Assembly (NCBI GenBank): GCA_035389185.1
Contig: DAOORK010000001.1
Location: 695,419-759,418, forward strand
DNA length: 64,000 nt
Reading direction: 5' to 3'
From: Candidatus Woesebacteria bacterium
GTDB lineage: Bacteria > Patescibacteriota > Microgenomatia > UBA1400 > MFAQ01
In this document: piece after piece, positions 30,778 to 49,767 of the stretch
Numbering within the stretch: the stretch's first letter is position 1
Layout of the letters: each line of letters opens with the position of its first letter
Made by a program: the position numbers and the translations under genes
Notes under the pieces: model-generated
What the model was told of the DNA's origin: nothing
Databases searched by the model: none
Seen by the model: the letters and a program-made list of their open reading frames with translations, nothing else

Positions 30778-30779
30778 AC

Positions 30780-31365: not shown

Positions 31366-31389
31366 TATTAACATATTATTCATCGCCTT

Positions 31390-33341: not shown

Positions 33342-34628
33342 TTGTCGTCTCAGAAATTATTTATCACGCCTGAGATGAGATACAATAGCTATATGGAAGA
33401 AGCGAGAAAGAAAGAACTTATTGAGAGCTTCTTGACGCGCGGCGTTGAGAATTACATTCCGAACAAAGCAGAAATCGAAAAAATGCTTAATTCGGGGAGA
33501 GTTCTTAACGTGTATATGGGAATTGACCCCACGGCAACAAAGATTCATTTGGGTCATGCTTTCCCCCTGCGTAAACTGCAAATATTGGCTGAGCTGGGAC
33601 ACCATGTGACCTTCCTTATTGGCGACTTTACGGCAACGGTTGGAGACACCTCGGACAAAGAAACTGAGAGGCCAATGCTCTCACGTGAGCAAATTGAAGA
33701 AAATTTCAAAGACTACAGAAGACAAGCAAAGAAGTTTTTGGACTTTTCGAAAATTGAGGTTCATTTCAATAGCGAGTGGCTGAGTAAACTGGACTTCGCG
33801 GCAGTTCTAAAACTAACAAAACACTTTTCCTTAAACGATTTTATTAGCCGAGAATTAATTAAAAAGAGACTTTTGGAAGGGAAAAGTGTGTCACTACCGG
33901 AAGTACTTTACCCAATCATGCAAGGTTATGACAGTATGGCACTCGACACCGATATTCAGATTGGGGGAACCGACCAGACATTTAATATGCAGGCAGGGAG
34001 AACTTTGATTAAAGACCTAAAGGGAAAAGACTCATGCATTATTACCAATGGCTTTTTGCCAGGGACTGATGGACGCAAGATGAGTAAAACCTGGGGGAAC
34101 GCGATTTGGTTGGAAGACTCACCAGAAGAGGTGTTTGGAAAAGTAATGTCGGTGAAAGACGATATGATTGTCACCTACTATGTTATGGGAACTAACGCTC
34201 CTCAAAATGTAATTGATGAGGCTAAGAAACGTCTTGAGAGCGGGGAGAATCCGATGAATATAAAGAGGGAGTTGGCTAGAGTGATTGTGAAAGAACTTTG
34301 CGGTAAAGAAGAGGTAGATGCGGCAGAAGAATTTTTCCAAAAAACTGTCGTGGAAAAGAAGGTGGACGAAAATGCCTTGGAGATTACTACTAATGTCGAT
34401 GAATTGGGAATTGTTCAACCGATAATTAAAGACGGAACTAGTTTACTGGATTTTATTGTTGACTCAGGGTTAGCACAAAGTAAATCTGAAGCAAAAAGAT
34501 TGTTGGAGGAAGGAGCTCTTTATCTTGATGAAAAAAGAATTGTTAAAGGAGACGAGGTAATTAAGCTCCATATTGGTATAAATGTAATTCGTGTAGGTAA
34601 ACGTAAATATTTAAAAATTATTAAATAA
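33342..34628 (+). CDS. tyrS: Tyrosyl-tRNA synthetase with C-terminal S4 domain
   Basis: HLGHAFP (HIGH) and KMSKT motifs. C-terminal S4-like RNA-binding domain. The true start is probably an internal ATG (33375/33393). Confidence 0.9.
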   Translation: MSSQKLFITPEMRYNSYMEEARKKELIESFLTRGVENYIPNKAEIEKMLNSGRVLNVYMGIDPTATKIHLGHAFPLRKLQILAELGHHVTFLIGDFTATVGDTSDKETERPMLSREQIEENFKDYRRQAKKFLDFSKIEVHFNSEWLSKLDFAAVLKLTKHFSLNDFISRELIKKRLLEGKSVSLPEVLYPIMQGYDSMALDTDIQIGGTDQTFNMQAGRTLIKDLKGKDSCIITNGFLPGTDGRKMSKTWGNAIWLEDSPEEVFGKVMSVKDDMIVTYYVMGTNAPQNVIDEAKKRLESGENPMNIKRELARVIVKELCGKEEVDAAEEFFQKTVVEKKVDENALEITTNVDELGIVQPIIKDGTSLLDFIVDSGLAQSKSEAKRLLEEGALYLDEKRIVKGDEVIKLHIGINVIRVGKRKYLKIIK

Positions 34629-34633
34629 ATAAT

Positions 34634-34957
34634 ATGTCAGTTACTTTTGAAGAACTAAACGAAAAAATAATGGATCAGGCGGCAGAGAAAGGTTTCGGAA
34701 CAAAACCGGAAGAGATTTCTGTTCCAGAGAAAATTGCTCTAATACACGCTCAGGTGTCATCGGCCTATGAAGGATATCGGAGTAAAAAGATGACTGGAGG
34801 TTGGAGCTTGGAAGATGAAATGGCTGGTGCAGTGATGAGAATTATCCATTTGTGTGGTGTATTGGGACTAGATCTGGAAGGCGCAATACTGAAGAAATAT
34901 GAGGAAAACAAAACCAGAGAATGGGATTGGAAAAAGATGAACGAGAAACATTCATAG
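34634..34957 (+). CDS. MazG-like nucleotide pyrophosphohydrolase domain protein
   Basis: EKIALIHAQVSSAYE ... EDEMAGAVMRIIHLCGVLGLDLEGAI pattern resembles the all-alpha MazG/NTP-PPase fold with conserved acidic residues. Confidence 0.5.
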   Translation: MSVTFEELNEKIMDQAAEKGFGTKPEEISVPEKIALIHAQVSSAYEGYRSKKMTGGWSLEDEMAGAVMRIIHLCGVLGLDLEGAILKKYEENKTREWDWKKMNEKHS

Positions 34958-34977
34958 ATGTCGGATAGAATTGATGT

Positions 34978-36297
34978 ATGCAAACTAAAGTAATACCAAG
35001 AATACAAGCAGGATTTATGGAACTCCTGCCAGCAGAACAGATTTTGTTCAATAAGTTTGTGGAAATCATCAAAGAGACTTTTGAGGAGTATGGTTTTGTG
35101 CCGCAAGATACACCTATCGTGGAAAACGCGGATGTGCTTTTTGCCCAGATTGGGGAAGATACCAAAAAAGAAGTCTATCGATTTTCCAAAGGGGACGATG
35201 AACTAGGGCTTAGATTTGATTTGACTGTGCCGTTGGCTCGCTATGTGGCCATGTACAGTAATAGTCTAACGTTCCCCTTTCGCCGTTACCAGATAGGCAA
35301 AACATATCGGGGGGAGAGACCGCAGAAAGGGCGTTTCCGGGAGTTTTATCAGGCTGACATTGATATTATTGGAAATGGAGCCCTGGCTATGGTCAACGAC
35401 GCCGAGATACCGGCAGTAATCAACAAAGTGTTTGAGAAACTGGATTTAGGTGACTTTGTAATTAAGATTAGCAATCGAAAAATTCTTAGCGGACTGTTGG
35501 AAGATCTGGGAGTTGCAGACAAGCGAGATGAAGTATTAAGAATTATCGATAAGCTGGAAAAGGTGGGGCTGGAGACAGATAAACAAATGCTCATTGATTT
35601 GGGAATTACGGCTAGTGATGCCAATAAAATTATGGATTTTGTCCGTTTGGGAGGAAGCAATGTCAAGATTTTGGAGAGTCTTGGAAAAATGGAGATTGAC
35701 AACGAGACGTTTAAACAGGGAGTAACGGAGCTATTCGAAGTAGTGAAAAAAGCCGGAGAGTTTGGGGTGCCGGAGAAAAATATGCAGATTGATTTGGCAA
35801 TTGCCCGAGGCCTTTCATATTACACCGGGACAGTCTACGAAACAAAACTCTTGGATGATCGGGTGAAAGGAAGTGTTTGCGGCGGTGGAAGGTACGATAA
35901 TCTGGCTGAAAGTTATAGCAATCAAAGTTTCCCCGGAGTTGGAGTTTCTATCGGCCTCACCAGATTGTTTTCGCAACTGTTGGATGCCGGGATGATTAAA
36001 GCAGAAACGGCTACACCAGCCAAAGTGCTGGTAGTGCCAATGGAAGCCGATATGCCTTTTGCACTTGAAGTTTCCGGGAAACTACGAGAGGCAGGAGTAC
36101 CAACAGAACTTTATACCGAAGACGATAAATTCAAAAAGAAACTCATTTATGCCAATAAAATTGGAGTACCATATGTGGCAATTATTGGTGAAGATGAAGT
36201 GAACAAAAAGAAAGTGGCTTTGAAAAATATGAAGACGGGAGAACAGAAATTATTGACAATAATGGAGGTATCAGAGGAATTAGAGAATAATATATAG
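34978..36297 (+). CDS. hisS: Histidyl-tRNA synthetase
   Basis: Class II motifs (RYQIGKTYRGERPQKGRFREFYQ, GGGRYD) and a C-terminal anticodon-binding domain. Confidence 0.9.
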   Translation: MQTKVIPRIQAGFMELLPAEQILFNKFVEIIKETFEEYGFVPQDTPIVENADVLFAQIGEDTKKEVYRFSKGDDELGLRFDLTVPLARYVAMYSNSLTFPFRRYQIGKTYRGERPQKGRFREFYQADIDIIGNGALAMVNDAEIPAVINKVFEKLDLGDFVIKISNRKILSGLLEDLGVADKRDEVLRIIDKLEKVGLETDKQMLIDLGITASDANKIMDFVRLGGSNVKILESLGKMEIDNETFKQGVTELFEVVKKAGEFGVPEKNMQIDLAIARGLSYYTGTVYETKLLDDRVKGSVCGGGRYDNLAESYSNQSFPGVGVSIGLTRLFSQLLDAGMIKAETATPAKVLVVPMEADMPFALEVSGKLREAGVPTELYTEDDKFKKKLIYANKIGVPYVAIIGEDEVNKKKVALKNMKTGEQKLLTIMEVSEELENNI

Positions 36298-36780
36298 ATG
36301 GATAACATTGTTATTTCAAGATTAGGAAAAGAAGAAGTTGATAGTTTTTATGAACTTTTCAAATCAGTAGCAAAAACCGACTTTGATGACTGGACGCAAG
36401 AATCAAAGGAAAAATGGCTTTTAGACGACTATTCAATTGAATACTGGAGAACCCTTTTAAAGGAAGATAAGTTGCCAATATTTGTAGCTAAGGATGGAGA
36501 AGAAATGGTTGGATATGTGATGTTGGAAGGAATAAATTTTGGTGTTGCATATTTAGGGTGGATTGGAGTCTTAAAGTCACATCAAAACATGAAAATTGGA
36601 GGAAAATTGATAGAAGAGATGATTGATTGGTGTAAAAATAATCATCTCCATAAAATTGAACTTGAAACACAAGAGACTCATTTGCAGCATTTCTACGAAA
36701 AACACGGATTTGTTTTGGAAGGAATAAGAAAAAATAGTTGGCAAAACCTTGATAATTATATGTACGGGAAAATTCTTTGA
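36298..36780 (+). CDS. GNAT family N-acetyltransferase
   Basis: Acetyl-CoA-binding-like motif region (..GVLKSHQNMKIGGKLIE..) and GNAT length (160 aa). Confidence 0.7.
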   Translation: MDNIVISRLGKEEVDSFYELFKSVAKTDFDDWTQESKEKWLLDDYSIEYWRTLLKEDKLPIFVAKDGEEMVGYVMLEGINFGVAYLGWIGVLKSHQNMKIGGKLIEEMIDWCKNNHLHKIELETQETHLQHFYEKHGFVLEGIRKNSWQNLDNYMYGKIL

Positions 36781-36849
36781 TCTGGGAAGTGGTAAAATCA
36801 TGCTGCAGGGAGATAAATTAGCCATTAGCTAAACTTCAAGCAAAATATT

Positions 36850-37050
36850 ATGATAGGTACGGTTAAAACAAAAACAGACAGAGGATACGGCTTTATTGCT
36901 CGTGATGGAGAATCAAAAGATCTCTTTTTTCATTCCAATGACTTAAGTGGTATCTCTTTTGAAGAACTACAAACAGGAGCTAAAGTTTCGTTTGATATTG
37001 AAGAGGGTACAAAAGGACCCGCTGCAAAAAACGTAAAAATCGCTGAGTAA
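36850..37050 (+). CDS. cspA: Cold-shock protein (CspA family)
   Basis: GTVKTKTDRGYGFIARDGESKDLFFH with RNP1/RNP2 motifs. 66 aa. Confidence 0.85.
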   Translation: MIGTVKTKTDRGYGFIARDGESKDLFFHSNDLSGISFEELQTGAKVSFDIEEGTKGPAAKNVKIAE

Positions 37051-37065
37051 TTTTGATTAGGTAGC

Positions 37066-37096
37066 AAAAAAGCCTCACATTGTGGGGCTTTTTGTT
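37066..37096 (+). terminator. Rho-independent terminator after csp
   Basis: GCCTCACA-TT-TGTGGGGC hairpin followed by TTTTTG. Confidence 0.6.
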
Positions 37097-37175
37097 GCAT
37101 CAAATATTCCTGTCGAGTATAATCTCAGCGATAAAGTTAACTTTTGGTTCTTTAAACTTATATTAAGGAGGAAAT

Positions 37176-37433
37176 ATGGGAGAAGGTGACTTTGGGGCAT
37201 TTTATTTTTCTGAACAACAAAATAATTTGGGGATACAGGATATCGCCGTGTTCAGAGATATTTTTGGGAAATTACATCGCTATTCATATATGAGGAGTAC
37301 ATTCCCTTTTAAAAAGAAAGTCTCATATTGCAAGGATGCAATATTTATCGGTTTTGGATGGTTTTATGGTTCGTATACAGCTTATTCTTTTTACAATAGT
37401 GGTTTAGCTCGCGATGTCAAAATGAAGCCGTAA
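37176..37433 (+). CDS. Hypothetical aromatic-rich small protein (85 aa)
   Basis: Strong SD AAGGAGG 6 nt upstream of ATG. No domain recognised. Confidence 0.3.
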   Translation: MGEGDFGAFYFSEQQNNLGIQDIAVFRDIFGKLHRYSYMRSTFPFKKKVSYCKDAIFIGFGWFYGSYTAYSFYNSGLARDVKMKP

Positions 37434-37479
37434 ATTATTCCCTTCATACACCACTCAGAAATGGGTGGTTTTTTGTGGT

Positions 37480-38847
37480 TTATTTTAGAGCAGAGAGAAG
37501 CTCCTCAATCTTGACACGCTTTTGAGTGGCAGTATCTCTTTCGCGAACCGTGACAGTGTTGTCTTCGAGGGTGTCGTAGTCAACGGTAATACAGTAAGGA
37601 GTGCCGATCTCGTCTTGAGTGAAGTAGCGTTTGCCGATATTACCTCTTTCGTCTAAGACAGCACTCATGTCTTTCTTTAAATCATTAAAGACCTCATTAG
37701 CTTTTTTGCTTAATTCTTCTTTGTTACCAACCAAGGGGAAGACAGCGACTTTGTATGGTGAAAGAACCTCAGGAAGTTTGAGAACGACTCTTTGTTTTTC
37801 CGTGTCTTCAAAATAGGAGTTCATAAGGATAATAGTAAGTAAACGGGAAAGACCAAAGGTTGGTTCAATAACATGAGGAAGGAATTTTTCCTGGGAGTAT
37901 GGATCTGTGTAGCGAAGATCAACACCTGATTTCTCCATGTGATTTTTGAGATCAAAATCGGTGCGGTAGGCAATTCCAAACATTTCCTTGAAACCCCAGG
38001 GGAATTCGTATTCAAGATCCTCGGTGCGTTTGCTGTAGTGAGCGAGTTCCTCTTTGGTATGAGCACGCCATCGAAGTTTTTCGGCAGGAAGACCTAAATC
38101 AATGGCAAAGTCGTACATTTCTTTTTTCCAGTATTCAAAACTGTTTTCCCAGTCTTCTGGTTTGACAAAATACTCAAACTCGGCCAGATCAAACTCAAGT
38201 GTGCGGAAGGTAAACTTGCCCATAGTGATTTCGTTTCTAAAGGCTTTGCCGGACTGAGCCAGACCAAAAGGAAGTTTGGGGTGAAGGGAGTCAAGAACTT
38301 GTTTGAAGTCGACAAACATACCTTGGGCAAGCTCACCGCGCAGATAAGCGGTATTTTTACCTTCGGTGATGATACCAATCTGAGTTTCAAAAAGCTGATT
38401 GAAGTTACGTACTTTAGTCCAGGTTTTGTTGCCGCATTTGGGACACTTGATGCCCTTGTCGGCAATAATCTGATCGAGTTCTTCAGTGGGTTTACCTTCA
38501 ACATTGTCCAGACCGGCGGCATCTTCTATCAACTGATCAGCACGAGTACGGAAGTGACAAGTGAGACAGTCGACCATAACGTTGGTGAAGTTTACGGTAT
38601 GACCCGAAGCTTCCCAGACTTTGGGACTCATGATGACAGAAGTATCCAAACCAAACATATCAGAACGGGAAGTGACAAAAGTTTTCCACCAGAAATTCAT
38701 GAGATTGCGTTTGAATCCGGTGCCTAGAGGACCGAAGTCATAGGTGTTGGCAAGTCCCCCATAGATTTCCGACCCGGGAAAAATAAAGCCGCGGCGCTTG
38801 GAGAGGGAGATTACTTTATCTAGTATGGTTGATTTGTTATCAGACAT
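37480..38847 (-). CDS. glyQS: Glycyl-tRNA synthetase, alpha2 (archaeal/eukaryotic) type
   Basis: N-terminal RRGFIFPGSEIYGGLANTYDFGPLG signature of dimeric GlyRS. Class II core with C-terminal anticodon-binding domain. Confidence 0.85.
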   Translation of the reverse strand: MSDNKSTILDKVISLSKRRGFIFPGSEIYGGLANTYDFGPLGTGFKRNLMNFWWKTFVTSRSDMFGLDTSVIMSPKVWEASGHTVNFTNVMVDCLTCHFRTRADQLIEDAAGLDNVEGKPTEELDQIIADKGIKCPKCGNKTWTKVRNFNQLFETQIGIITEGKNTAYLRGELAQGMFVDFKQVLDSLHPKLPFGLAQSGKAFRNEITMGKFTFRTLEFDLAEFEYFVKPEDWENSFEYWKKEMYDFAIDLGLPAEKLRWRAHTKEELAHYSKRTEDLEYEFPWGFKEMFGIAYRTDFDLKNHMEKSGVDLRYTDPYSQEKFLPHVIEPTFGLSRLLTIILMNSYFEDTEKQRVVLKLPEVLSPYKVAVFPLVGNKEELSKKANEVFNDLKKDMSAVLDERGNIGKRYFTQDEIGTPYCITVDYDTLEDNTVTVRERDTATQKRVKIEELLSALK

Positions 38848-38849
38848 AT

Positions 38850-40187
38850 TTATTTTTTAGCAGATAAACGGACATCGATGCGTTCCATATCGCGGGGGAA
38901 CATAGAAGCTTCACGAATATTTTTGAGTCCGAGAATGTACATAGTGACTCTCTCAGCTCCTAAGGCAAAACCGCCAAGCTGGGGCGAACCGTATTTAAAA
39001 GCTTGAAGATAAAGTACATTATCTTCTTCTTTAAGACCCCATTCCTTAACGTTTTTCAGAATACTTTGGTAGTCGTTGAGTCTCTGGCCACCGGAGGACC
39101 ATTCAACACCTCGGCAAAGTAAATCAACACTAAAAGCATATTCAGGGTCTGCCGGATCCGGGTAAACGTAGAAAGGTTTCTTCTTGGTGGGGAAATGAGA
39201 AACAAAAACGAGGTCTGACTCTTTTTCTTCTTTGGCCCAAGCACAAATTTCTCTTTCATCTTCCGGAGCAAAATCTTTTTCTCCACGGCAGTCGCGACCG
39301 GTTCTTTGGAAGATAATTTCTTGCGCGTCATGCAATTTTATTACGGGGAATTTATCCTTTGCCATCAAAGGAATGGTAGCACCGAAAAGAGATAACTCTT
39401 TCTGACACTTTTCACTGACCTCTTTGAAGATGAAACGGACGACGTATTCTTCCATTTCGAGAACATCTTCCCAGGAGTCTAGAAAATTAAATTCGGCGTC
39501 AAGACTGGTGGCCTCGGTGAGATGACGAGTGGTGCTAGATGGCTCGGCTCTAAAAATCTGATTGACACTAAAGACTCTTTCGAAGGCAGTAGTGAGGAGG
39601 GACTTGTAAAGCTGAGGACTTTGGGAGAGAAAGGCTTCGCTGTCGAAGTATTTGACCTTAAAAACTTCAGCACCGCCTTCGGGAACGGAACTAATAATCG
39701 AAGGAGCTTGGAACTCGAGGAAATCGCGAGCGATCATGGCCTTGCGGAAGGCCTCGATGATGATAGCCTGAACTTTGAAGATTGCTTGTATCTTGGGGTG
39801 ACGGAAGGTGAGAGAACGATAATCGAGGAGAGTAGAAATATCGAGATCGAGATCTTCTTTACTCATGTCGAAGGGCATCTCAGCGGAGGAGGCTAGTATG
39901 GTGAGTTTGGTGGCTTCGATTTCGATCTTGCCCGTATCTAAATCGAGGTTAATATTGTTTTGAGATCTTTCCTTAACTGTGCCTTCGATTTCGATGGTAT
40001 CTTCGGTTCTTAAGCTTTTGGCAGAGGTGGCGATTTCGCCCCAAAAGACTATCTGAACAATTCCGCTACGATCACGAAGATCGATAAAGACAACTTTGCT
40101 GTGGTCACGTTTGGTGTTAACCCAGCCTTTGAGGGTCACTGTTTGTCCAATCTTGGTGACGGTGTCTTTAATGAGTGTTCGTTCCAT
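38850..40187 (-). CDS. aspS: Aspartyl-tRNA synthetase (short archaeal/eukaryal-type class IIb)
   Basis: N-terminal OB fold, AspRS-specific flipping loop QSPQLYK, and motif 2 FRAEPSSTTRHLTE. 445 aa. Confidence 0.8.
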   Translation of the reverse strand: MERTLIKDTVTKIGQTVTLKGWVNTKRDHSKVVFIDLRDRSGIVQIVFWGEIATSAKSLRTEDTIEIEGTVKERSQNNINLDLDTGKIEIEATKLTILASSAEMPFDMSKEDLDLDISTLLDYRSLTFRHPKIQAIFKVQAIIIEAFRKAMIARDFLEFQAPSIISSVPEGGAEVFKVKYFDSEAFLSQSPQLYKSLLTTAFERVFSVNQIFRAEPSSTTRHLTEATSLDAEFNFLDSWEDVLEMEEYVVRFIFKEVSEKCQKELSLFGATIPLMAKDKFPVIKLHDAQEIIFQRTGRDCRGEKDFAPEDEREICAWAKEEKESDLVFVSHFPTKKKPFYVYPDPADPEYAFSVDLLCRGVEWSSGGQRLNDYQSILKNVKEWGLKEEDNVLYLQAFKYGSPQLGGFALGAERVTMYILGLKNIREASMFPRDMERIDVRLSAKK

Positions 40188-40232
40188 GTGAATTATTATA
40201 TAGTTAATATGATCTTGGATACATATTTGTGT

Positions 40233-41564
40233 TTAAGGGTAGGGTAGATGATCATATAATCTTGGAAATAGAAATGCATCGCGAATGTGTGGAAGCTTTA
40301 GTAATGCCCTGAGAAGTCGTTCAACCCCCATACCAAAACCACTCCGAGGAATATTACCAAAATTACATAATTCCACATACCATTGAATTTTTTGTTTTTC
40401 AATTTCTGTAATATATTTTTTTTCATTTATTCTTGTTAGTAGCTGTGAACTGTCTTGAATAAATTCTGCTACACCCAATATTTCTCCGTAACCGCCAGGT
40501 AATAAAAGATCGGCCGTTTTTGTAAATCTATTATCTGATTCCATTATTTTGTAAAGAAATGGTTCGACTTTTGCTGGCATATTGGTTACAAAAACAGGTT
40601 TGTTGTATTTGCTTGTAATGATTGTTTCGGCTTTTTCATTAAGGCTTTGGCCAATTTCGATATCTATACCTTCAGATTTGAGAATTTTTAAGGCTGATAA
40701 ATATGAGATTTTAGGATATGGAGGCTTGAATTCTTGTACGTTGATACTAATATTTAGGTTATTGAGATCTACTTGTGAAACAGTGTTTAAATTATTGACT
40801 AGAAAAAATAACATATTTTCAATAAAATTCATCATATCTTCAAGTGAGCAAAATGCGGCTTGACACTTTAGGTGATAAAACTCAGGATTATGTCTTGGAC
40901 TTTTACTTGATTCTCGTCTGAAAGCGGGTGTGATTGTGTATACCTGTTCAAACGTTGGTACCATTGCTCCAAGATAAAGGCCAGCACACTGTGAGAGGTA
41001 GACTTTTGTCCCAAAATAATCGGTATTAAATGTATTATTGTTGTCGTATATATTTGTTTGTGTAAGTATTGGAGTGTCGACTTCGATAAACTGATATTTC
41101 TTAAACCATTCTCTGAGGATAGACAACATTTGGTATTTTATTACGAATACAGAACGAATTTTTGAGTTTCGAATATATAGATGTCTTTTATTTAAGATTA
41201 GTTTTGAATATCGTTTTTCGAAAGGATTTACCAATGATCTTGGAGAAGGTTCCAGTTTAGGTGAGGCAGTACCAATAATTAACATACTAATAATCTGTAT
41301 TTCTTGTTTGCCCTTTTTGGTTGTATTGTTCTTAGTTACACCATGCACCTTTACAGAAGAATCAATCGTAATTTTTGATATTTGAACATATTCGTTGTTC
41401 GAGACAGAATCTTTTAATACAATACTGTCAATACTGCCTGTGGAATCTTCAAGCTCAAAGAAAATTATTCCACCATGATCTCTCTTGTTTTTTATCCAAC
41501 ACAGAATTTCAACATCAGTATTTGTCTGTAAACCAAAAATATGTTTAATAAAGAATGTTTTCAT
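40233..41564 (-). CDS. asnS: Class IIb aminoacyl-tRNA synthetase paralog, AsnRS-like, compositionally atypical (low GC, N/K-rich)
   Basis: N-terminal OB fold. YLSQCAGLYLG resembles the AsnRS YLTQSSQLYLE loop rather than AspRS QSPQ. Motif 2 is FRRESSKSPRHNPEF and motif 3 is GFGMGVERL. The nucleotide sequence is markedly AT-richer than its neighbours. Confidence 0.6.
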   Translation of the reverse strand: MKTFFIKHIFGLQTNTDVEILCWIKNKRDHGGIIFFELEDSTGSIDSIVLKDSVSNNEYVQISKITIDSSVKVHGVTKNNTTKKGKQEIQIISMLIIGTASPKLEPSPRSLVNPFEKRYSKLILNKRHLYIRNSKIRSVFVIKYQMLSILREWFKKYQFIEVDTPILTQTNIYDNNNTFNTDYFGTKVYLSQCAGLYLGAMVPTFEQVYTITPAFRRESSKSPRHNPEFYHLKCQAAFCSLEDMMNFIENMLFFLVNNLNTVSQVDLNNLNISINVQEFKPPYPKISYLSALKILKSEGIDIEIGQSLNEKAETIITSKYNKPVFVTNMPAKVEPFLYKIMESDNRFTKTADLLLPGGYGEILGVAEFIQDSSQLLTRINEKKYITEIEKQKIQWYVELCNFGNIPRSGFGMGVERLLRALLKLPHIRDAFLFPRLYDHLPYP

Positions 41565-41661
41565 GTCTGTTTTCGCCCTGATTAAGTATAACGCTACTTT
41601 GTTTAAACTTAGGATAGAGTAGTGACAAAATAGACTTATAAGTGTAGAATATGCCGTTAAG

Positions 41662-43506
41662 ATGATTGAAAACGAGTGTTGTTTAAGACCAGGAGTAAGT
41701 TTTGAAGTAAAAAGAGAGGAATTTTCTGTGGGTTTGACAGAAAAAGAACGACTGGCATTGGAAATTGCAGCAGAAATTCATAAGGAAGATATCAGAAGGA
41801 CGACGGGAGAACCTTATGTAAATCATTGCATGGCTGTAGCACAAATTCTAAGGCAATGGGGGGCAGATGAGGAAATGGTGATTGCGGGACTTTTGCATGA
41901 TACTTGGGAGGACCACCCGGAACTGATTTCACTAGAACAGATTAGAGATATGTTTGGAGAAAGAGTGGCGCTTTTGGTAGACGGAGTGAGTAAGTTTAAG
42001 TCTCCGACAGGGAAGGACAATGATTTTGAAACACTTCGAAAAGTAACCAGAGAGACTTTGGTGGAACCTGGTGTGGCGATGATTAAGCTAGCGGACCGTT
42101 TGCACAACATGCATACGATGGAGGATGGTCCAAAAGGAAAAGGATTCTCAGAGGAAAAGAAGATGGCGAAGGCAAAGGAAACTTTGGCCGTTTATGTACC
42201 CATGGCTGAGTCGCTTGGATTATGGCAAGTGAAAAATGCTTTGGCGGACATTTCCTTTTACTACCTAGAGCCAGAGAGATATAAACAAGTAAAAGAAAAA
42301 ATTGATTCTGATCCAAGGCTGGAGAAAAATTTTATTGAGGGAACTGAAAAAGCGATTGCGACTGCTTTGATTGAGGCTGGTATTGCGGCTGAAGTAAAGC
42401 ACGAGGTGGGTGGCTACTGGGAGTTAGCAGAAAAGCAGAAACGATCAGCAATGAGAGCCGATAGCAAGCCAAAGGAATTTGCGGACATTACCGATGTGGT
42501 CAGTTTCCGAGTAATTATTAAAGATGAAGAGAACTTGGCACAGTGTTATTTGGCGATGGGGGTAATTAGAAATAAATATAAGAACTTACTGGTACAAAAT
42601 CGGAGTGACGATTACCTAGTGAAACCGGCAGTAAATGGCTATAGTGCTTTCCATGATACGTATAAAGTCAATGAAGGAAATATTGAAGTCGCTTTTACGA
42701 CAAGAAAAAGAGAAAACTTTAATAACTGGGGGGTGGCGAGTATCGGTCAGGAAGAATTAATGAAAGACCCAGATTCTTATAAACGAAAGATGATTTTTAC
42801 TCCAAAAGAAGAGTTGGTGTTTATGGAGCCTGGAGCAACAGGAATTGATGTGGCCTACAAACTAAATCCTTTACTCGGATTAAGAGCCGTGGCAATTAAA
42901 GTAAATGGAGAAGTGATAAGCCTTGACAAAATAATCCCTAACGCTGGAGTAGTGGAAGTGATCACTGATCAACACCAAACGTACCCTAACGTAGACTGGC
43001 TCGGCTTTTGTAATCCTGAAACAAGGAACACAATTGAACAGCAAATGAGAATTGCCGAACATGATCAGGAAGTGAACAGGGGAAAAGAAATATTAGTTAA
43101 TCAGGTATTGAAGGAGAGGGGAATTTTGGCGATTGAGGATCTGGATCAGGATGTGGTTGATAAGCTATTGGTGGACTTGGGGTGTTGGTTTGGGATTGAC
43201 GATCTATATTACAAGGTAGCATACGGATTGGATCCGGAAGTGGTATCAAAGAAGCTTGATGAGATGAAGATTGGAAGAGGAATGTTTACCACGATATTAG
43301 TTCAGGGGAGAAACAGAATTGGCGTATCTGAAGAAATTGCCGGAATAATTGCCAAGCACAAGGGTGATGAGAGAAGTAAGGTGGAAAAGGTTAATAGAGA
43401 AGAGAACTTTATGATTCGAGTTTTGATAACGGTGGATTACCAAGGAAAGAAAGAAATTGAAAGAGAACTGCGAGAACGAAAGTTTACTAGTTGTATGGTG
43501 GTCTAG
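41662..43506 (+). CDS. rel: Bifunctional (p)ppGpp synthetase/hydrolase, RelA/SpoT homolog (HD + synthetase + TGS)
   Basis: HD hydrolase motif HDTWEDH, synthetase-domain motif DDYLVKPAVNGYSAFHDT and a TGS-like region. 614 aa. Confidence 0.8.
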   Translation: MIENECCLRPGVSFEVKREEFSVGLTEKERLALEIAAEIHKEDIRRTTGEPYVNHCMAVAQILRQWGADEEMVIAGLLHDTWEDHPELISLEQIRDMFGERVALLVDGVSKFKSPTGKDNDFETLRKVTRETLVEPGVAMIKLADRLHNMHTMEDGPKGKGFSEEKKMAKAKETLAVYVPMAESLGLWQVKNALADISFYYLEPERYKQVKEKIDSDPRLEKNFIEGTEKAIATALIEAGIAAEVKHEVGGYWELAEKQKRSAMRADSKPKEFADITDVVSFRVIIKDEENLAQCYLAMGVIRNKYKNLLVQNRSDDYLVKPAVNGYSAFHDTYKVNEGNIEVAFTTRKRENFNNWGVASIGQEELMKDPDSYKRKMIFTPKEELVFMEPGATGIDVAYKLNPLLGLRAVAIKVNGEVISLDKIIPNAGVVEVITDQHQTYPNVDWLGFCNPETRNTIEQQMRIAEHDQEVNRGKEILVNQVLKERGILAIEDLDQDVVDKLLVDLGCWFGIDDLYYKVAYGLDPEVVSKKLDEMKIGRGMFTTILVQGRNRIGVSEEIAGIIAKHKGDERSKVEKVNREENFMIRVLITVDYQGKKEIERELRERKFTSCMVV

Positions 43507-43513
43507 CGGAAAA

Positions 43514-44449
43514 ATGAGTTATATTAGTAATGGTTTGAATAATTTAGAAAGTCTAGTTAAATGTTTGGAACCAGAAAAGACAAAGCTAAATGAGCCGATG
43601 TCGGCGCATACTACTTTGGGTGTGGGTGGAGAAGCAGACATTTTTTATAAAACCGAAAATTCAGGAGACCTGGTTAAGGCGATACGACTGGCAAAATCTT
43701 TTCAAGTACCTGTTACCGTGATAGGAGAAGGAAGCGGAGTGGTGTTTGGTGATTTGGGAATTGAAGGGATTGTGATTAGAAGTAATAGCAAGAGAATTCA
43801 GATTAAACCGATAAGAAGTTTTACGGATATATTTATTAAAAAGGAAGTAAAGAAAATGGAGGTAACAATTGATGGAGGTATGGGGACGCAAATGGCATTG
43901 AAGGAATTGGATGGAAAAGGAATAGTGGGCTTGGAGTGTATGAAGAATTATAGAGGAAGTATCGCGGGGGCTGTCTTGGATGGTTTGGGAAGAGAGTTCC
44001 TGAAAAAAATATCCATCATTGATGTTCATGGAGGAGTGAAAACAAAGACGCCGGGAAAAAATGTCGAAGGCAGTGTGATTGTGGATGCGACGTTTGTTTT
44101 ACGATCAGGTGTCCAAAATCAGAAATTGAAGAAGCGCGGTGAAAAAATAAAAGAGAAAAAGCAAAGTCGATCGGTATCAAAAGTATTTGAGGATTTGCCA
44201 GAAGAAGAAGTGAAGATTTTGGGATATCCGACGGGGAATCCAGCGTATTTGATCGGAGATGTTTTGAATATGAAAGATTTTAGACTGGGAAAGATGAAGA
44301 TTTCGAGGAGCGATGCAAACACAGTGGTTAATCTGGGAAAAGGAACAGCAAAAAATTATGTACAGTTGGTGGAAGAAATAAAAAACAGGGCACGAGATGC
44401 TGTGGGAATCGAACTAGCAGAAAATGTGGTGCGATTGGGAAAGTTTTGA
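43514..44449 (+). CDS. murB: UDP-N-acetylenolpyruvoylglucosamine reductase MurB
   Basis: FAD-binding N-terminal region (MSAHTTLGVGGEAD) and MurB C-terminal domain. Start moved to ATG 43514 to avoid the overlap with rel. Confidence 0.75.
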   Translation: MSYISNGLNNLESLVKCLEPEKTKLNEPMSAHTTLGVGGEADIFYKTENSGDLVKAIRLAKSFQVPVTVIGEGSGVVFGDLGIEGIVIRSNSKRIQIKPIRSFTDIFIKKEVKKMEVTIDGGMGTQMALKELDGKGIVGLECMKNYRGSIAGAVLDGLGREFLKKISIIDVHGGVKTKTPGKNVEGSVIVDATFVLRSGVQNQKLKKRGEKIKEKKQSRSVSKVFEDLPEEEVKILGYPTGNPAYLIGDVLNMKDFRLGKMKISRSDANTVVNLGKGTAKNYVQLVEEIKNRARDAVGIELAENVVRLGKF

Positions 44450-46782
44450 ATTACAATAGCCTCATGGCGTATGACTTTAAAGAGACCGAGAAAAAATGGA
44501 TAGATAGGTATGATGGTTTTGCTGGTTTTCACGGAATTGACTTTGAAAAGAAGGAGAAAAAATATATATTGGTGGAGTTTCCCTACCCTTCGGGATCTGG
44601 ATTGCACGTCGGTCATGCTTTTTCGATGACGGGGGCGGATGTCTATGCTCGATTCCAGAGAATGAAAGGATTTAATGTGATGTTTCCTATGGGTTGGGAT
44701 GCTTTTGGACTGCCAACTGAGAATTATGCAATTAAGATGGGACAAAAACCACAAGCTGTTACAAAGGAAAATACAGATAAGTTTAAGGAACAGATGAGGA
44801 GACTTGGATTTTCTTTTGACTGGGATAGATTGGTGGATACAACTGACCCTGATTATTACAAATGGACTCAGTGGATATTTACTAAATTGTTTGAGAAGGG
44901 GTTGGCACACAAGGAGGAAATGGCGATTAATTGGTGCCCATCTTGTAAGATAGGTTTGGCCAATGAAGAGGTAGTTGATGGAAAATGCGAGCGTTGCGGA
45001 ACGGAAACCGAGAGAAGAATAATCTCACAATGGGTGGTGAAGATTACGGATTATGCAGAGAGGCTTTTGGATGGATTGAAAGACACAAACTTTATAGACA
45101 AAGTTAGAGCGGCTCAGACGAACTGGATTGATAAAAGAGTAGGAGCAAAAATCCGTTTTGATGTCAAAGACTCTGAGGAAAAGCTCGAAGTATTTACCAC
45201 GAGACCAGATACCCTTGAGGGTGTGACCTTTATGGTGATTGCCCCTGAACATAAATTGGTTGGTGGGGTACTTAATAATCCAGGAGTGAAAGAGTATGTT
45301 GCCGAGACGAGAAAAAAGAGTGAGATGGAGAGAACAGAACTTTCAAAAGAAAAGACAGGTGTTTTCTCCGGCCTGTACGCTATAAATCCAGTGACACAAA
45401 AAGAGATTCCGATATGGATTGCTGACTATGTACTTATTTCTTATGGAACAGGTGCCATTATGGCAGTACCAAGCCATGATGAGCGGGACAAGGCTTTTGC
45501 AGAGAAGTTCGGACTGGAAATAAATCTTGAATATACTCCTGATGAGAAAATGATCGAAAAAATTGTAGAAAAAGGGGTTGGAGAGAAGTCGGTAAATTAT
45601 CACTTGAGAGACTGGATTTTTAGTCGTCAGCATTACTGGGGTGAGCCAATACCCATGATTTATTGCGAAAAAGATGGCTGGGTGAGTGTACCTGAGGAGC
45701 AGTTACCAGTTAGATTGCCCGAGATTGAAAAATATCAGCCAACTGATACGGGCGAATCGCCTTTGGCGACAATGACTGACTGGGTGGAAACGCCCTGTCC
45801 AGTGTGTGGTGGAGAAGCCAAGCGGGAGACAGATACGATGCCTAACTGGGCAGGAAGCGATTGGTATTTCTTGCGTTACGTCGATCCAAATAATGATAAG
45901 AAATTGGCTGACATGGAAAAGATGAAGTATTGGATGCCTGTGGACGTATATGTGGGAGGGGATGAACATAACACACTGCACTTACTTTATAGCCGATTTA
46001 TTTATCAGTTCCTTTGGGATTTGGGAGTAGTGCCGAAAGAGATTCCTGAACCGTATGACAAGAGATTGTCTCATGGGGTGATCCTTGGACCTGATGGAAA
46101 CAGAATGAGTAAGAGCCACGGTAATGTGGTGGTTCCGGATAGTGTGGCTGATGTTTATGGGACCGATGTGTTGCGAACATACATGATGTTTATGGGACCG
46201 TTTGACGCAACCATGGCTTGGAACGAGAGATCTTTGGTTGGGGTGAAACGATTTATAGAAAAACTATATAACTTGGTTGTTGACCAGGCAGGTAAAAATG
46301 GAGATGGTGATTTGACGGCTCCAAAAATCGTACAAAAGCTGATTAAAACTGCTAACGAGGATGTTTCCAGATTCAAATTTAATACGGTTGTGGCCAAACT
46401 AATGGAGACTGTCAATGAGCTGACAAAAAGTAAGGCGAAAGTATCAGACAGTGATCTAAAAAGTATTGTAAAGATTCTGGCTTTGTTTGCTCCTTTTGTG
46501 GCAGAAGAATTGTGGTCTATCTTGGGCGGCCAGTTTAGTGTACACACTCAGGAATTTCCTGTGTTTGAAGAAAGATATTTAGAGTCTGAGGGAATAACAT
46601 ATTCAGTCCAGATCAATGGAAAATTAAGAGATCTATTGGAAGGAGTAGACCCTGAGGCAAATGAGGAGGAAGTGCGAACAAAAGCAGAGTCTTCGGAAAA
46701 AGTACAAAAATATCTAAACGGAGGAAGTGTGATTAAGGTGATTTTTGTTCAGGGGAAGACGATTAATTATGTGATAACATAG
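44446..46782 (+). CDS. leuS: Leucyl-tRNA synthetase
   Basis: PYPSGSGLHVGHAF (HIGH) and RMSKSHGN (KMSKS) motifs, CP1 editing domain and zinc motif. 778 aa. Confidence 0.9.
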   Translation: MNYNSLMAYDFKETEKKWIDRYDGFAGFHGIDFEKKEKKYILVEFPYPSGSGLHVGHAFSMTGADVYARFQRMKGFNVMFPMGWDAFGLPTENYAIKMGQKPQAVTKENTDKFKEQMRRLGFSFDWDRLVDTTDPDYYKWTQWIFTKLFEKGLAHKEEMAINWCPSCKIGLANEEVVDGKCERCGTETERRIISQWVVKITDYAERLLDGLKDTNFIDKVRAAQTNWIDKRVGAKIRFDVKDSEEKLEVFTTRPDTLEGVTFMVIAPEHKLVGGVLNNPGVKEYVAETRKKSEMERTELSKEKTGVFSGLYAINPVTQKEIPIWIADYVLISYGTGAIMAVPSHDERDKAFAEKFGLEINLEYTPDEKMIEKIVEKGVGEKSVNYHLRDWIFSRQHYWGEPIPMIYCEKDGWVSVPEEQLPVRLPEIEKYQPTDTGESPLATMTDWVETPCPVCGGEAKRETDTMPNWAGSDWYFLRYVDPNNDKKLADMEKMKYWMPVDVYVGGDEHNTLHLLYSRFIYQFLWDLGVVPKEIPEPYDKRLSHGVILGPDGNRMSKSHGNVVVPDSVADVYGTDVLRTYMMFMGPFDATMAWNERSLVGVKRFIEKLYNLVVDQAGKNGDGDLTAPKIVQKLIKTANEDVSRFKFNTVVAKLMETVNELTKSKAKVSDSDLKSIVKILALFAPFVAEELWSILGGQFSVHTQEFPVFEERYLESEGITYSVQINGKLRDLLEGVDPEANEEEVRTKAESSEKVQKYLNGGSVIKVIFVQGKTINYVIT

Positions 46783-47558: not shown

Positions 47559-48446
47559 ATGAAAAAAGTATTGATGGGACTTGCTATTTTGCTGGTTGTT
47601 TGGGGTGTGTTTTTAACACCAAAAACTCTAGCAGTAGCTGAGGAAATTACGCCCCAAATTGAAACTGTTGAGACGGCAACACTGGCTGCCGAAACGGTGC
47701 CAGTTAAAGAAATTGACTTAACTGTACCTACTCAAGAAGGTGACCGATTAACAAAACTCTTAAATGGTCAAAAACTTTCCGGATGGTGGGGTAAAGATGT
47801 GTTGAAGATTGCTATGCGAAAAGCTGTATCTGAAGGAGTGTCTCCAAACACTTTAGTATTACTCTTCTTATTCCCTCTTGTGGCCGCTTTGGTGGCTTTT
47901 TCCCGTCAAGTTGTAGGTGTCTCTGGATTTGGAATAATTACTCCAGCATTACTTTCGGTGGCTTTCTTGTCTACTGGAGGATTGGTAGGTATGGTGTTGA
48001 TGATTTTTATCTTGGGAGTAGCCACTTTTGCCAGATCACTTATTAAAAAAATAAAGATTCCTTATCTATCCAAATTGGCAATTTTAATCTGGATTATTTC
48101 AATGGCAGTACTGGTTTTACTTCTGGTGTCACCAATGATTGGACTTGAAAGACTTATGAGTGTAGGTATTTTTCCGATTATGCTGTTTGTACTTTTGGCC
48201 GAGACTTTTATCGAAGCTCAGATCACCAGAAGCGTATCTACTTCTATGTGGATGACAATCGAAACAGTTATTTTGGCTTTGGTGGCTTACAAGTTATTGA
48301 GTGCTCCCTGGATTCAGTCTCAAGTGATACTTCATCCAGAAATTTCTGTAATTGTAATTTTGATTGTCGACCTTTTGATTGGTAGATATAAAGGTTTGAG
48401 ATTATCTGAGGTTTGGAGATTTAGAAAAATTGTATATAGAAAATGA
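47559..48446 (+). CDS. Signal-peptide-bearing 7-TM membrane protein (7TM_transglut-like, no transglutaminase domain)
   Basis: Cleavable-looking signal peptide, ~90-aa extracytoplasmic segment, then seven hydrophobic helices. Overlaps the ATP-grasp gene by 4 bp (atga). Confidence 0.5.
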   Translation: MKKVLMGLAILLVVWGVFLTPKTLAVAEEITPQIETVETATLAAETVPVKEIDLTVPTQEGDRLTKLLNGQKLSGWWGKDVLKIAMRKAVSEGVSPNTLVLLFLFPLVAALVAFSRQVVGVSGFGIITPALLSVAFLSTGGLVGMVLMIFILGVATFARSLIKKIKIPYLSKLAILIWIISMAVLVLLLVSPMIGLERLMSVGIFPIMLFVLLAETFIEAQITRSVSTSMWMTIETVILALVAYKLLSAPWIQSQVILHPEISVIVILIVDLLIGRYKGLRLSEVWRFRKIVYRK

Positions 48447-49756
48447 TAGGAGACTGGAATTTCAACGATATTTTGGGTCTTAATGATAGGTTTTTTTCGT
48501 ATACCAAACAGAATTACAAGAGAGCAAGAAGAAGAGCCGATGATAAGCTGGTGACGAAAAAAATGTTAATGATGGCAAAAGTGCCTCATCCAAAGTTACT
48601 GGGAAAAATTGGCAGTAGAAAAGGACTGGATAATTTTGAGTGGAACAAATTGAGTGGAGGAATAGTAATCAAACCCGTAAAAGGATTTGGCGGTCAGGGA
48701 ATCTTGATTCTGAGAAAATCGATAAAAGAAGCAGACAAGTTTTTCTTGCCAACGGGGAAATCTATTAGTCTTGATCAAATAAAAGTTCATGCGATGGATA
48801 TTATCGAAGGAAGATTTTCCCATAATAACTTGCCGGACAAAGTGATGATTGAGGAAAGAATATACATTCATCCCAAGTTTAAAAAACTTTCTGCTGGAGG
48901 AACTCCAGATGTTCGTATCATTGTTTATAACAAAGTACCTGTGATGGCGATGTTGCGTTTGCCTACGGAAGAATCTGAAGGTAAGGCTAACTTGCACATG
49001 GGAGCTATTGGTTTGGGAATTGATATTGCAACAGGAATTACTACTTATGGCGTATATAAGAATGAACTGATTAAGCGCTTCCCCGACAGTGGTAAAAAAG
49101 TTAATGGAATATTTATTCCTCACTGGAACAAACTAATGCTGATGGCAGTAAAAGCTCAGATTGTAAGCAAATTGAAATATTTGTCTGTTGACATGCTTAT
49201 TGATAAGGATAAAGGACCTGTGGTTTTGGAACTCAATGATCAGCCTGGGCTTTCTATTCAACTGGCCAACATGGCTGGTCTTAGAAAACGACTGGAGAGA
49301 GTAGAAGGACTAAAAATCGATTCACCAGAAAAGGGAGTAAAAATTGGACGGGCGTTGTTTGCTTCCGAGTTTGCCAGCCGAGTCAAGTTTGACACGATGG
49401 AAAGACCGGTAGTGTCTGTTTTTGATCAAGTAGCTCTTAAGGCTTATCAGGGTAAAAGAACAATGATAAAAGTGAAGTTGGACACAGGAGCATATAGTAC
49501 AAGTATTGATCGGAAATTGGCTGAGAAGATGGATTTGCTTAATCCAAAAAATATAATAATGGAAAAGAGTTTTAGATCAGCACTGGGCGTACAAATGAGA
49601 CAAATTGTTGGGGTGAACTTTCGACTGAAAGGTGTCAGAATAAAGACTGTAGCCTCAATTACCAGTAGAGGACATCTTGATTATCAAATGATAATTGGCC
49701 GAAGAGACCTCAAGGGATTTTTGGTTGATCCAATTTCAGATGAAGCGGATCAATAA
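48443..49756 (+). CDS. RimK-like ATP-grasp ligase (alpha-L-glutamate ligase-related) fused to a C-terminal retropepsin-like aspartic protease domain
   Basis: ATP-grasp motifs (IVIKPVKGFGGQGILIL; ...LHMGAIGLGIDIATG...; VVLELNDQPGL). The C-terminal ~120 aa carry a DTGA motif (KVKLDTGAYSTSID) like the RimK-associated Zn_protease/retropepsin domain. Confidence 0.7.
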   Translation: MIGDWNFNDILGLNDRFFSYTKQNYKRARRRADDKLVTKKMLMMAKVPHPKLLGKIGSRKGLDNFEWNKLSGGIVIKPVKGFGGQGILILRKSIKEADKFFLPTGKSISLDQIKVHAMDIIEGRFSHNNLPDKVMIEERIYIHPKFKKLSAGGTPDVRIIVYNKVPVMAMLRLPTEESEGKANLHMGAIGLGIDIATGITTYGVYKNELIKRFPDSGKKVNGIFIPHWNKLMLMAVKAQIVSKLKYLSVDMLIDKDKGPVVLELNDQPGLSIQLANMAGLRKRLERVEGLKIDSPEKGVKIGRALFASEFASRVKFDTMERPVVSVFDQVALKAYQGKRTMIKVKLDTGAYSTSIDRKLAEKMDLLNPKNIIMEKSFRSALGVQMRQIVGVNFRLKGVRIKTVASITSRGHLDYQMIIGRRDLKGFLVDPISDEADQ

Positions 49757-49767
49757 ATACAAATAAT

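Follow-up and report, generated by a model that had tools for sequence, protein, structure and literature searches.

A markedly AT-rich gene resembling asparaginyl-tRNA synthetase (AsnRS), beside a gene for aspartyl-tRNA synthetase (AspRS) in a Patescibacteria (Candidate Phyla Radiation, CPR) genome, raises the question of whether it is a recent import, a fast-evolving paralog, or an enzyme of another kind. We analyzed it within a stretch of 64,000 nucleotides, hereafter the window (Candidatus Woesebacteria bacterium, contig DAOORK010000001.1, positions 695,419 to 759,418). A preliminary description, made from the sequence alone, had placed the gene at 40233-41564, as one of 2 class IIb synthetase genes lying head-to-tail on the minus strand. 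It was right in these particulars: the coordinates are exact, the motifs YLSQCAGLYLG and FRRESSKSPRHNPEF were both found in the open reading frame (ORF), and the downstream gene carries the AspRS loop QSPQLYK, as identified from the ORF list and the profile NF003483. The query protein is identical to the NCBI entry [quoted passage not shown] which occurs on contigs of up to 905 kb.

We identified the protein as an intact AsnRS-like class IIb synthetase. The ORF would be functional and vertically inherited, part of a family that spans Patescibacteria, here called family X, whose members normally form a 2-gene unit with AspRS. Judged from sequence comparison, its most likely role, which we propose with middling confidence, is still that of a tRNA(Asn)-type synthetase, with a re-wired recognition of asparagine.

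Fold and amino-acid pocket

The class II (D, K, N) core tRNA-synt_2 (PF00152) was identified in the query by Pfam at 203 bits, along with a weak OB-fold match (PF01336, 38 bits). An AlphaFold2 (AF2) model built with 33 homologues reached a predicted local distance difference test (pLDDT) score of 91.2 and a predicted template modeling (pTM) score of 0.90. Its best structural matches in Foldseek were the AsnRS entries 1x54 and 9sh8 (TM score 0.88), and it superposed on the Thermus thermophilus AsnRS, also at a TM score of 0.88; the best solved relative by sequence was the Pyrococcus horikoshii AsnRS (1x54, 250 bits). The query has class II core motifs 2 and 3, an N-terminal OB-fold, and the AsnRS fold. 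All the class II elements for binding ATP and forming the adenylate are present, and both the dimeric AsnRS fold and the OB-fold RNA-binding domain are kept.

The AsnRS models were the top NCBIfam matches of the query, with scores that fell short of the cut-offs for both NF003037 (303.9 bits, cut-off 414) and TIGR00457 (273.6 bits, cut-off 342.6). Because the 8 other synthetases scored in the window (including ArgRS, LysRS, ThrRS, TyrRS, LeuRS, GlyRS, and AspRS) all exceeded their own cut-offs, this shortfall does not reflect general CPR divergence. The query also remained below the thresholds of the AspRS profile (248 bits, cut-off 353), asparagine synthetase A (134.6 bits, cut-off 368), and EpmA (GenX; 58 bits, cut-off 264), the last 2 being weak matches.

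We compared the pocket in an alignment of 95 homologues, with 50 canonical (mostly archaeal) AsnRS and 42 members of family X, 25 from sub-branch X-A, to which the query belongs, and 17 from sub-branch X-B; the query aligned to 1x54 and to the T. thermophilus AsnRS without gaps at the pocket sites. To our knowledge, every solved AsnRS structure holds asparagine by a Glu/Arg pair, a flipping-loop Glu, and a Gln. The query has neither the Glu/Arg amide pair, nor the flipping-loop Glu, nor the second Gln of the QSxQ loop. Position 173, the flipping-loop Glu, is Glu in 50/50 canonical sequences vs. Tyr in 42/42 X sequences; the human equivalent, E279, contacts the amino-acid moiety (PMC10831071). 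The second Gln of QSxQ (position 195), again present in all 50 canonical enzymes, is Gly, Ala, Ser, or Thr in X, and position 193 of the same loop (46 Ser and 4 Thr in the canonical set) has become Cys in all 42. The Asn-binding Glu (position 233; T. thermophilus E225) is Glu in 50/50 canonical AsnRS vs. Lys in 42/42 X, and the Asn-binding Arg (position 368; T. thermophilus R368), found in 50/50 canonical AsnRS, is Lys in 17/17 X-B and Phe in 24/25 X-A, including the query. This pair ("Glu-233, Arg-377") hydrogen-bonds the asparagine amide and is named as the AsnRS specificity determinants in a survey of synthetase-ligand structures (PMC7387524). X further differs from canonical AsnRS in having G(V/I)A in place of GG(S/G). 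The preliminary description had raised the possibility of a non-canonical enzyme, which is borne out, and the departure is larger than it had noted, with 4 contact residues replaced and the curated AsnRS cut-offs failed. Since these 4 contacts, including the Glu/Arg pair, have been replaced, specificity for asparagine cannot be assumed.

The residues of the ATP site are conserved in X (R216, R224/H225, E228, F229, E361, G364, and R416), with Glu361 of the GE motif being the residue that we take to be a Mg/ATP ligand. By alignment, Arg216 is equivalent to human R322, a phosphate contact, and Glu218 to E324, an adenylate contact; E218 is mostly kept, in 17/25 X-A and 13/17 X-B. Position 174 is acidic (Asp or Glu) in most X, and this residue may be a stand-in for the lost flipping-loop Glu. 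Because the replacement residues are themselves invariant within X, the alignment indicates purifying selection on the new pocket. In AspRS, the aspartate side chain is bound by the QSPQ loop with E. coli K198, D233, and R489; the query has QCAG, Leu198, Lys233, and Phe368 in this set and does not qualify as an AspRS. A charge swap from Glu225/Arg368 to Lys233/Glu367 was considered and set aside: by analogy with LysRS, every other residue of this strand is directed to the pocket, so that residue 367 probably faces away.

Family breadth, AspRS partners, and inheritance

We scanned one genome per GTDB species with X-specific peptide patterns and identified 252 relatives of X; neighborhoods of ±10 kb were examined for the best 80 of the 252, with their genes classified by local tblastn and alignment. 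The 252 relatives spanned Saccharibacteria, Paceibacteria, Uhrbacteria, Falkowbacteria, Peregrinibacteria, Gracilibacteria, Doudnabacteria, and Shapirobacteria, and the best 80 loci represented many CPR classes, plus 4 DPANN-labeled contigs. On the latter (L020, L022, L040, and L042, assigned to Parvarchaeota, an Aenigmarchaeum single-cell genome, and Micrarchaeia), the X genes may stem from exchange between CPR and DPANN or from mis-binning. With an X-B member as the query, a protein search gave at least 1915 clusters at E ≤ 1e-60, and in a metagenome scan with X-A patterns, L090 was the one true X-A locus among the matches listed. Many "uncultured Gammaproteobacteria/Pseudomonadales" titles among the X matches look like mislabeled CPR genomes. 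No description of family X was found in the searchable literature on AsnRS of CPR/Patescibacteria, GatCAB in CPR, or synthetase paralogs, and AARS Online lists a single AsnRS family; X is apparently a large, previously undescribed family with thousands of members.

In a neighbor-joining tree of class IIb enzymes (100 bootstraps), X was monophyletic (100/100) and grouped with canonical AsnRS, apart from the AspRS type (100/100), and not with AspRS or LysRS; X-A was recovered in 84/100. X forms a clade of its own on a long stem (0.29), with a thaumarchaeal AsnRS group as sister. Descent from an archaeal-type AsnRS would best explain this placement. X is the usual AsnRS-type gene of Patescibacteria. 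The 2 sub-branches differ in several residues: compared with X-B, X-A has RHN for RHL, Gln for Glu235, Phe for Lys368, and, in most members, Gly for Glu199. Across 22 X-A sequences, 61 columns are invariant, including the ATP site and the new pocket.

An AspRS-type gene was identified directly downstream of X on the same strand in 59/77 loci and adjacent to it in 64/77, and all of these partners scored above the archaeal-type AspRS cut-offs. The usual partner is a widespread CPR AspRS variant, Y (L012-L089, e.g., L069 11367-12674), in which motif 2 reads FRAN, with Glu changed to Asn, and motif 3 reads G.G.GLTR, with Glu/Asp changed to Thr. The partner in the window is a canonical archaeal-type AspRS (type Z), and a related CPR variant, Y2, was found in some relatives of the query. 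Two different AspRS-type genes lie within 10 kb of X in about 11/80 loci. The divergence of X-B tracks that of its AspRS partner (r = 0.70, rate ratio 1.2); the 2 diverge together, as is expected of a core translation gene. The 45-bp spacer between the X and AspRS genes of the window (40188..40232) contains no terminator-like site, and we infer that the 2 genes are co-transcribed. An Rfam scan found no T-box or other leader 5′ of the X gene.

Around the X-AspRS pair, HIT-domain (29 loci), Amidohydro_2 (24), PepE-like Peptidase_S51 (15), and LD-carboxypeptidase (12) genes recur, which may hint at a link to aspartate or peptide salvage, or to aminoacyl-adenylate hydrolysis. No consistent tRNA neighbor of X was identified in 60 loci; tRNA-Asn(GUU) was present in the ±10-kb flank in 3/60, one of them at most 2 kb away.

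Composition was compared across the 51 window ORFs of at least 120 amino acids (aa). The X gene has a guanine plus cytosine (GC) content of 0.324 vs. 0.404 ± 0.029, a third-position GC (GC3) of 0.252 vs. 0.389 ± 0.047, the lowest in the window, and a four-fold-site GC of 0.237 vs. 0.382 ± 0.072, and its fraction of F+Y+M+I+N+K (0.381 vs. 0.306 ± 0.033) is the window maximum. With z-scores of about -2 to -3 (GC and GC3 about -2.8), the gene is an outlier among the window genes, although not the sole one. The adjoining AspRS and GlyRS genes have GC contents of 0.446 and 0.437. The preliminary description had called the gene AT-richer than every neighboring gene. The strong AT bias and the lowest GC3 stand, but "every" is slightly overstated because a single other ORF, for a GNAT acetyltransferase at 36298..36780 (+), matches it in AT-richness (GC 0.323; four-fold-site GC 0.19, the window minimum). 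This GNAT ORF begins one base past the HisRS stop, and in L006 the gene immediately downstream of X-A is a GNAT gene (7521-8063, -; GC 0.331).

Does this composition mark a recent arrival? The cluster RelA-[X/AspRS]-GlyRS-HisRS-TyrRS-ThrRS is common to the window and the WWE3-type contigs L004 and L170. Protein identities for the pairs window-L004, window-L170, and L004-L170 are 58%, 56%, and 72% for X, 86%, 85%, and 89% for GlyRS, 76%, 75%, and 85% for TyrRS, and 39%, 39%, and 79% for MurB. For ThrRS, the identity is 89% between the window and L005, a contig whose X protein is that of L004. One topology, ((L004,L170),window), was obtained for X, GlyRS, TyrRS, and MurB alike. The divergence of X between the same genomes is 2.5-3 times that of GlyRS, HisRS, ThrRS, and TyrRS, and its identity to the WWE3 orthologue is 58%, compared with 76-89% among the neighboring synthetases. 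The earlier suggestion of a rapidly evolving paralog therefore holds for the pace, while "paralog" is doubtful: X is the usual gene of its type in Patescibacteria, and no second AsnRS-like gene was seen near the X gene. The AspRS beside X has been swapped for a non-orthologous type, Z in the window (38850-40187) vs. Y2 in L004 (5633-6895) and L170 (8679-9989), at 32% identity, and the X/AspRS gene order is inverted between the window and L004/L170.

The AT shift was identified in 6 of the 7 core X-A loci compared, at -0.08 to -0.16 GC in hosts with a GC of 0.40-0.45. The GC of X-A and of its neighboring genes is 0.324 and 0.406 in the window, 0.348 and 0.435 in L004, 0.345 and 0.450 in L170, 0.331 and 0.453 in L006, 0.279 and 0.438 in L173, and 0.331 and 0.412 for the split X-A of L011 (z -0.8); the exception is the AT-rich contig L174 (0.312 and 0.317). 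Core X-A GC stays within 0.28-0.35 across hosts with a GC of 0.32-0.45, and the 74 X-B genes average +0.029 vs. their neighbors. AT-richness is an old trait of sub-branch X-A and not a sign of recent transfer. Three X-B genes are far AT-richer than their flanks (L029, 0.457 vs. 0.609; L054, 0.373 vs. 0.526; L015, 0.346 vs. 0.447). These contigs are labeled Holophagales, Christensenellaceae, and Pseudomonadota, respectively, and the AspRS partner in L029 is also AT-rich (0.462); they may be chimeric or represent transfers out of CPR.

Horizontal acquisition from a low-GC donor, which the preliminary description had named first, is very unlikely as a recent event. The GC, GC3, and four-fold-site GC of the gene do lie 2-3 standard deviations under those of the window genes, the core X-A GC resembles that of the AT-rich L174 (GC 0.317), which carries a basal X-A, and X-A stands beside non-orthologous AspRS types (canonical archaeal-type, CPR variant, and short bacterial-type). 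Against this, the gene holds the same cluster position in 3 related genomes, its tree is congruent with the flanking genes, and the AT shift is kept by orthologues only 56-72% identical. Because that shift persists between orthologues only about 50-70% identical, far longer than the expected amelioration time, recent import is not indicated. Among the marks of a recent island, we found atypical composition but neither absence in relatives nor a discordant tree, and the X gene of the window is not bordered by an integrase, a repeat, or a tRNA. An ancient origin of X-A in an AT-rich lineage, with transfer into the ancestor of the group, is possible because X-A GC is nearly constant and L174-like and the AspRS partners are non-orthologous between genomes. 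For the AT shift itself, our best guess is low expression or a weak selection on codons. Strongly anomalous composition is, on its own, not evidence that a gene was recently transferred.

Substrate, anticodon reading, and competing explanations

In the reading that we prefer, X would activate an amino acid with ATP and transfer it to a tRNA, most likely asparagine and tRNA(Asn), and would thus provide a direct route to Asn-tRNA(Asn). Asparagine would be held by re-wired contacts, e.g., Lys233 and the shifted acidic residue 174. The amidotransferase route present in relatives can make X dispensable, as partly seen in those relatives. In X-A, redundancy may have permitted a higher rate of evolution, the disappearance of the anticodon-reading Gln, and additional changes in the pocket, along with a lasting AT shift at the 3 codon positions, probably via weak selection or low expression.

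We searched for the amidotransferase route beside X. In a Saccharibacteria genome, X-B has a bona fide GatA (579.6 bits, cut-off 481.1) 4 kb away. L174 (3198-7611) encodes a 482-aa amidotransferase subunit whose N-terminal half scores as archaeal GatE (538 bits, cut-off 456) and whose C-terminal half scores as GatB/YqeY; this GatB/GatE-like gene is 2 genes upstream of an archaeal-type AspRS and the basal X-A gene, on a contig that may be archaeal (DPANN). Amidotransferase genes were not enriched near X, with 3 cases in about 1.5 Mb of flanks, which is about chance. No GatA or GatB motifs were found in the 64-kb window, and its 4 tRNAs are for Ile and Met only. The cultured Saccharibacterium Southlakia epibionticum, with a complete genome, has essential GatC, GatA, and GatB and one bacterial-type AspRS (PMC10633639). 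Because only LysRS and AspRS carry the class II (D, K, N) domain in its gene table (PMC10633639), it has neither AsnRS nor X. From this gene set, the indirect amidotransferase route exists in the phylum, and X is dispensable in at least 1 lineage. The patchy presence of X is a pattern typical of the direct AsnRS route, and redundancy is a plausible reason for relaxed constraint where both routes co-exist.

Several observations weigh against the preferred reading. All 4 amino-acid-contacting residues, each invariant in the 50 canonical AsnRS, are replaced in X, and the pocket has gained net positive charge (Glu to Lys); by analogy with AspRS, an acidic side chain would be a better fit there than an amide. 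The anticodon readers of AsnRS are missing as well. The OB-fold Gln is the U35 reader in class IIb synthetases, and column 46 is Gln in 49/50 canonical AsnRS and 15/17 X-B; it is variable in the 25 X-A (Asp46 in the query), so that the U35-reading Gln is lost in X-A. The "RAP" loop Arg, which in P. horikoshii AsnRS (Arg83) reportedly reads U36 (Iwasaki et al. 2006), is absent, and no X has a conserved Arg in this loop. X-A and X-B members other than the query are also below both curated AsnRS cut-offs, and the NCBI label of some X members is "hypothetical protein." Finally, the window sequence outside ORFs of at least 120 aa, a fraction contaminated by small ORFs and RNA genes, has a GC of 0.408 and is no AT-richer than the genes. 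For this reason, drift to mutational equilibrium is not an obvious explanation of a GC3 of 0.25, and as the sole cause of the low GC it is unsupported.

The main competitor, somewhat unlikely in our judgment, is a changed specificity, in which X would no longer activate asparagine. As a dedicated mis-acylating enzyme, it would load an acidic amino acid (e.g., aspartate) onto a tRNA, probably tRNA(Asn), to feed GatCAB, or it would use another substrate. The amino-acid contacts are all replaced and the replacements are invariant, and with Lys233 and Lys368, X-B has 2 basic and no acidic specificity residues, a charge logic that would be nearer to AspRS (Lys/Arg) than to AsnRS (Glu/Arg), to go by PMC7387524 and textbook AspRS. 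X is constantly operonic with AspRS, scores under the AsnRS equivalog cut-offs, and occurs in genomes with amidotransferase subunits. Peptidase_S51, a PepE-like enzyme that presumably releases aspartate, recurs beside the X-AspRS pair in 15 loci. However, the sub-branch of the query has Phe and not Lys at 368, amidotransferase genes are near X at chance level, and the acidic residue 174 may simply replace the flipping-loop Glu. Moreover, the archaeal-type AspRS encoded next to X already fits the models for a non-discriminating "aspartate--tRNA(Asn) ligase," which would make a second source of Asp-tRNA(Asn) superfluous. In this minority scenario, X would be a synthetase of new amino-acid specificity hidden under an AsnRS annotation, placing an acidic amino acid onto tRNA(Asn) or using a non-standard substrate. 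Asn-tRNA(Asn), or another product, would then be made by an undescribed route, and X-A (Phe368, Gln lost) would represent a further functional shift.

An unlikely alternative again is that X-A is decaying or non-translational, redundant with a non-discriminating AspRS plus amidotransferase and either losing tRNA recognition or recruited to an adenylation role outside translation. Its AT-richness and rapid evolution would then stem from relaxed constraint. The rapid divergence relative to GlyRS, HisRS, ThrRS, and TyrRS would fit, as would the lost OB-fold Gln, the weak OB-fold score (38 bits vs. 70 for AspRS; also "weak" in P0015, P0024, and P0033), the further loss of charged pocket residues in X-A (E199G, E235Q, and K368F), and the Saccharibacterium that lives without X. 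A few X-A members are split or have no N-terminal domain: the database proteins P0019 and P0021 lack the OB-fold, and the 222-kb Patescibacteria contig L011 carries X-A as 76 aa (10001-10231) and 326 aa (10341-11321), a split that a frameshift, pseudogenization, or misassembly could explain. Decay is, however, difficult to reconcile with a 443-aa frame intact in more than 20 diverged clusters, the 61 invariant columns, the high AF2 confidence throughout, and the divergence of X and AspRS between L004 and L170 (28% vs. 24%), a relative rate no higher than in X-B. The least probable of the explanations, and one we consider extremely unlikely, is the tRNA-independent amino-acid ligase of the AsnA/archaeal asparagine-synthetase or EpmA type that the preliminary description had offered as an example. 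The altered pocket would agree with it, as would the profile matches, both weak, to asparagine synthetase A (134.6 bits) and EpmA (58 bits), but those scores are far under the cut-offs (368 and 264), the tree puts X inside AsnRS, and the query retains a full, confidently folded OB-fold anticodon domain. We know of no N-terminal OB-fold in the AsnA, archaeal AS-AR, or EpmA families. Overall, the preliminary interpretation stands for a non-canonical, fast-evolving enzyme and fails for recent import and probably for a tRNA-independent ligase.

If X recognizes asparagine by a second mode, as in our preferred reading, this would serve synthetase engineering and help explain how specificity evolves. 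If it does something else, reconstructions of translation and asparagine supply would change for a large part of bacterial diversity. Either way, databases label this pocket-replaced family as AsnRS, and sometimes as "hypothetical protein."

Features of the locus and comparison with known systems

Table 1. Coordinates of the X gene, its parts, and its neighbors (window positions unless a contig is named)
Feature	Position	Strand	Description
Family X gene (AsnRS-like class IIb synthetase, sub-branch X-A)	40233..41564	-	One ATG-to-stop ORF, 443 aa
N-terminal OB-fold anticodon-binding domain, residues 17-98	41271..41516	-	From secondary structure and alignment; Asp46 at the class IIb Gln position
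Family-specific hinge insertion, about 8 residues, LEPSPRSL	41232..41255	-	Pro108 and Arg109 invariant in X; absent from 50/50 canonical AsnRS
Flipping-loop position	41043..41048	-	Tyr173 in place of Glu (human AsnRS E279 by alignment count), then Asp174
SQCAGLYLG, in place of the canonical (S/T)QSxQLYxE loop	40968..40994	-	Ser to Cys193, second Gln to Gly195
Motif 2 and tail, FRRESSKSPRHNPEFYHLKCQ	40860..40922	-	Arg216, Glu218, Arg224/His225, and Glu228-Phe229 kept; Lys233 for the Asn-binding Glu; Gln235 for Glu
GEILGVAEF strand	40461..40487	-	GE-motif Glu361 kept; GGSQR to GVAEF, Phe368 for the Asn-binding Arg
Motif 3, GFGMGVERLLR	40308..40340	-	Canonical; Arg416 kept
Spacer between X and AspRS genes	40188..40232	-	45 bp, without terminator-like site
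Partner gene, archaeal-type AspRS	38850..40187	-	445 aa; QSPQLYK, FRAE, D.E, SGGQR, G.G.G.ER; NF003483 454.5 bits (cut-off 353); GC 0.446
GlyRS, third gene of the same-strand run	37480..38847	-	NF003211 596 bits (cut-off 312); 2 bp after AspRS
Example loci, recurrent neighbors of the X-AspRS pair	L014 12715-13479; L051 12700-13158; L069 12776-13807; L061 5527-6558

The X gene is part of a super-cluster of 9 synthetases at 27469-46782 (ArgRS, LysRS, ThrRS, TyrRS, HisRS, GlyRS, AspRS, X, and LeuRS), with RelA/SpoT and MurB interspersed; its order is repeated in the WWE3-type contigs L004, L005, and L170. Downstream of LeuRS, at 47559-51757, RimK-type ATP-grasp genes lie in a row together with genes for a 7TM-transglutaminase-like protein and a DsbA-like thioredoxin (annotation from the matching JGI contig), a run the left part of which (7TM-transglutaminase-like, DsbA-like thioredoxin, and one ATP-grasp gene) is also present at the edge of L170. 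A lone complete 16S rRNA gene lies at 58197-59683 (+), with no 23S rRNA in the 4.3 kb remaining after it and a tRNA-Ile(GAT) 1.9 kb away on the opposite strand. A tRNA-Ile with the anticodon TAT (UAU), which is uncommon in bacteria, was identified at 6178-6252 (+) and in L026 (9688-9761), with 2 tRNA-Met(CAT) close by.

Compared with the archaeal/eukaryal-type AsnRS (P. horikoshii 1x54), X has the same length, an OB-fold plus class IIb core, and the same motif 2 Arg/Glu, RH..EF loop, GE ligand, and motif 3 Arg, and differs in its replaced pocket, the missing RAP-loop Arg, the 8-residue PxPR insertion, and its sub-cut-off scores. With AS-AR and AsnA it shares the class IIb catalytic core, but it keeps the anticodon domain, which those enzymes are not known to have, and its score is far under the cut-off. 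GluRS2 of Helicobacter/Acidithiobacillus, a duplicated synthetase that mis-acylates tRNA(Gln) and feeds GatCAB, is a conceptual precedent for a changed specificity only, being a class I enzyme with no sequence relationship to X. A parallel in gene content is Thermus/Deinococcus, in which AsnRS co-exists with an archaeal-type non-discriminating AspRS2 and GatCAB (PMC4206432). Here, likewise, an AsnRS-type gene co-exists with an archaeal-type AspRS matching the aspartate--tRNA(Asn) ligase model, and amidotransferase subunits are found in relatives. Unlike in Thermus/Deinococcus, the X and AspRS genes form one conserved operon, and the AsnRS-type partner has a non-canonical pocket.

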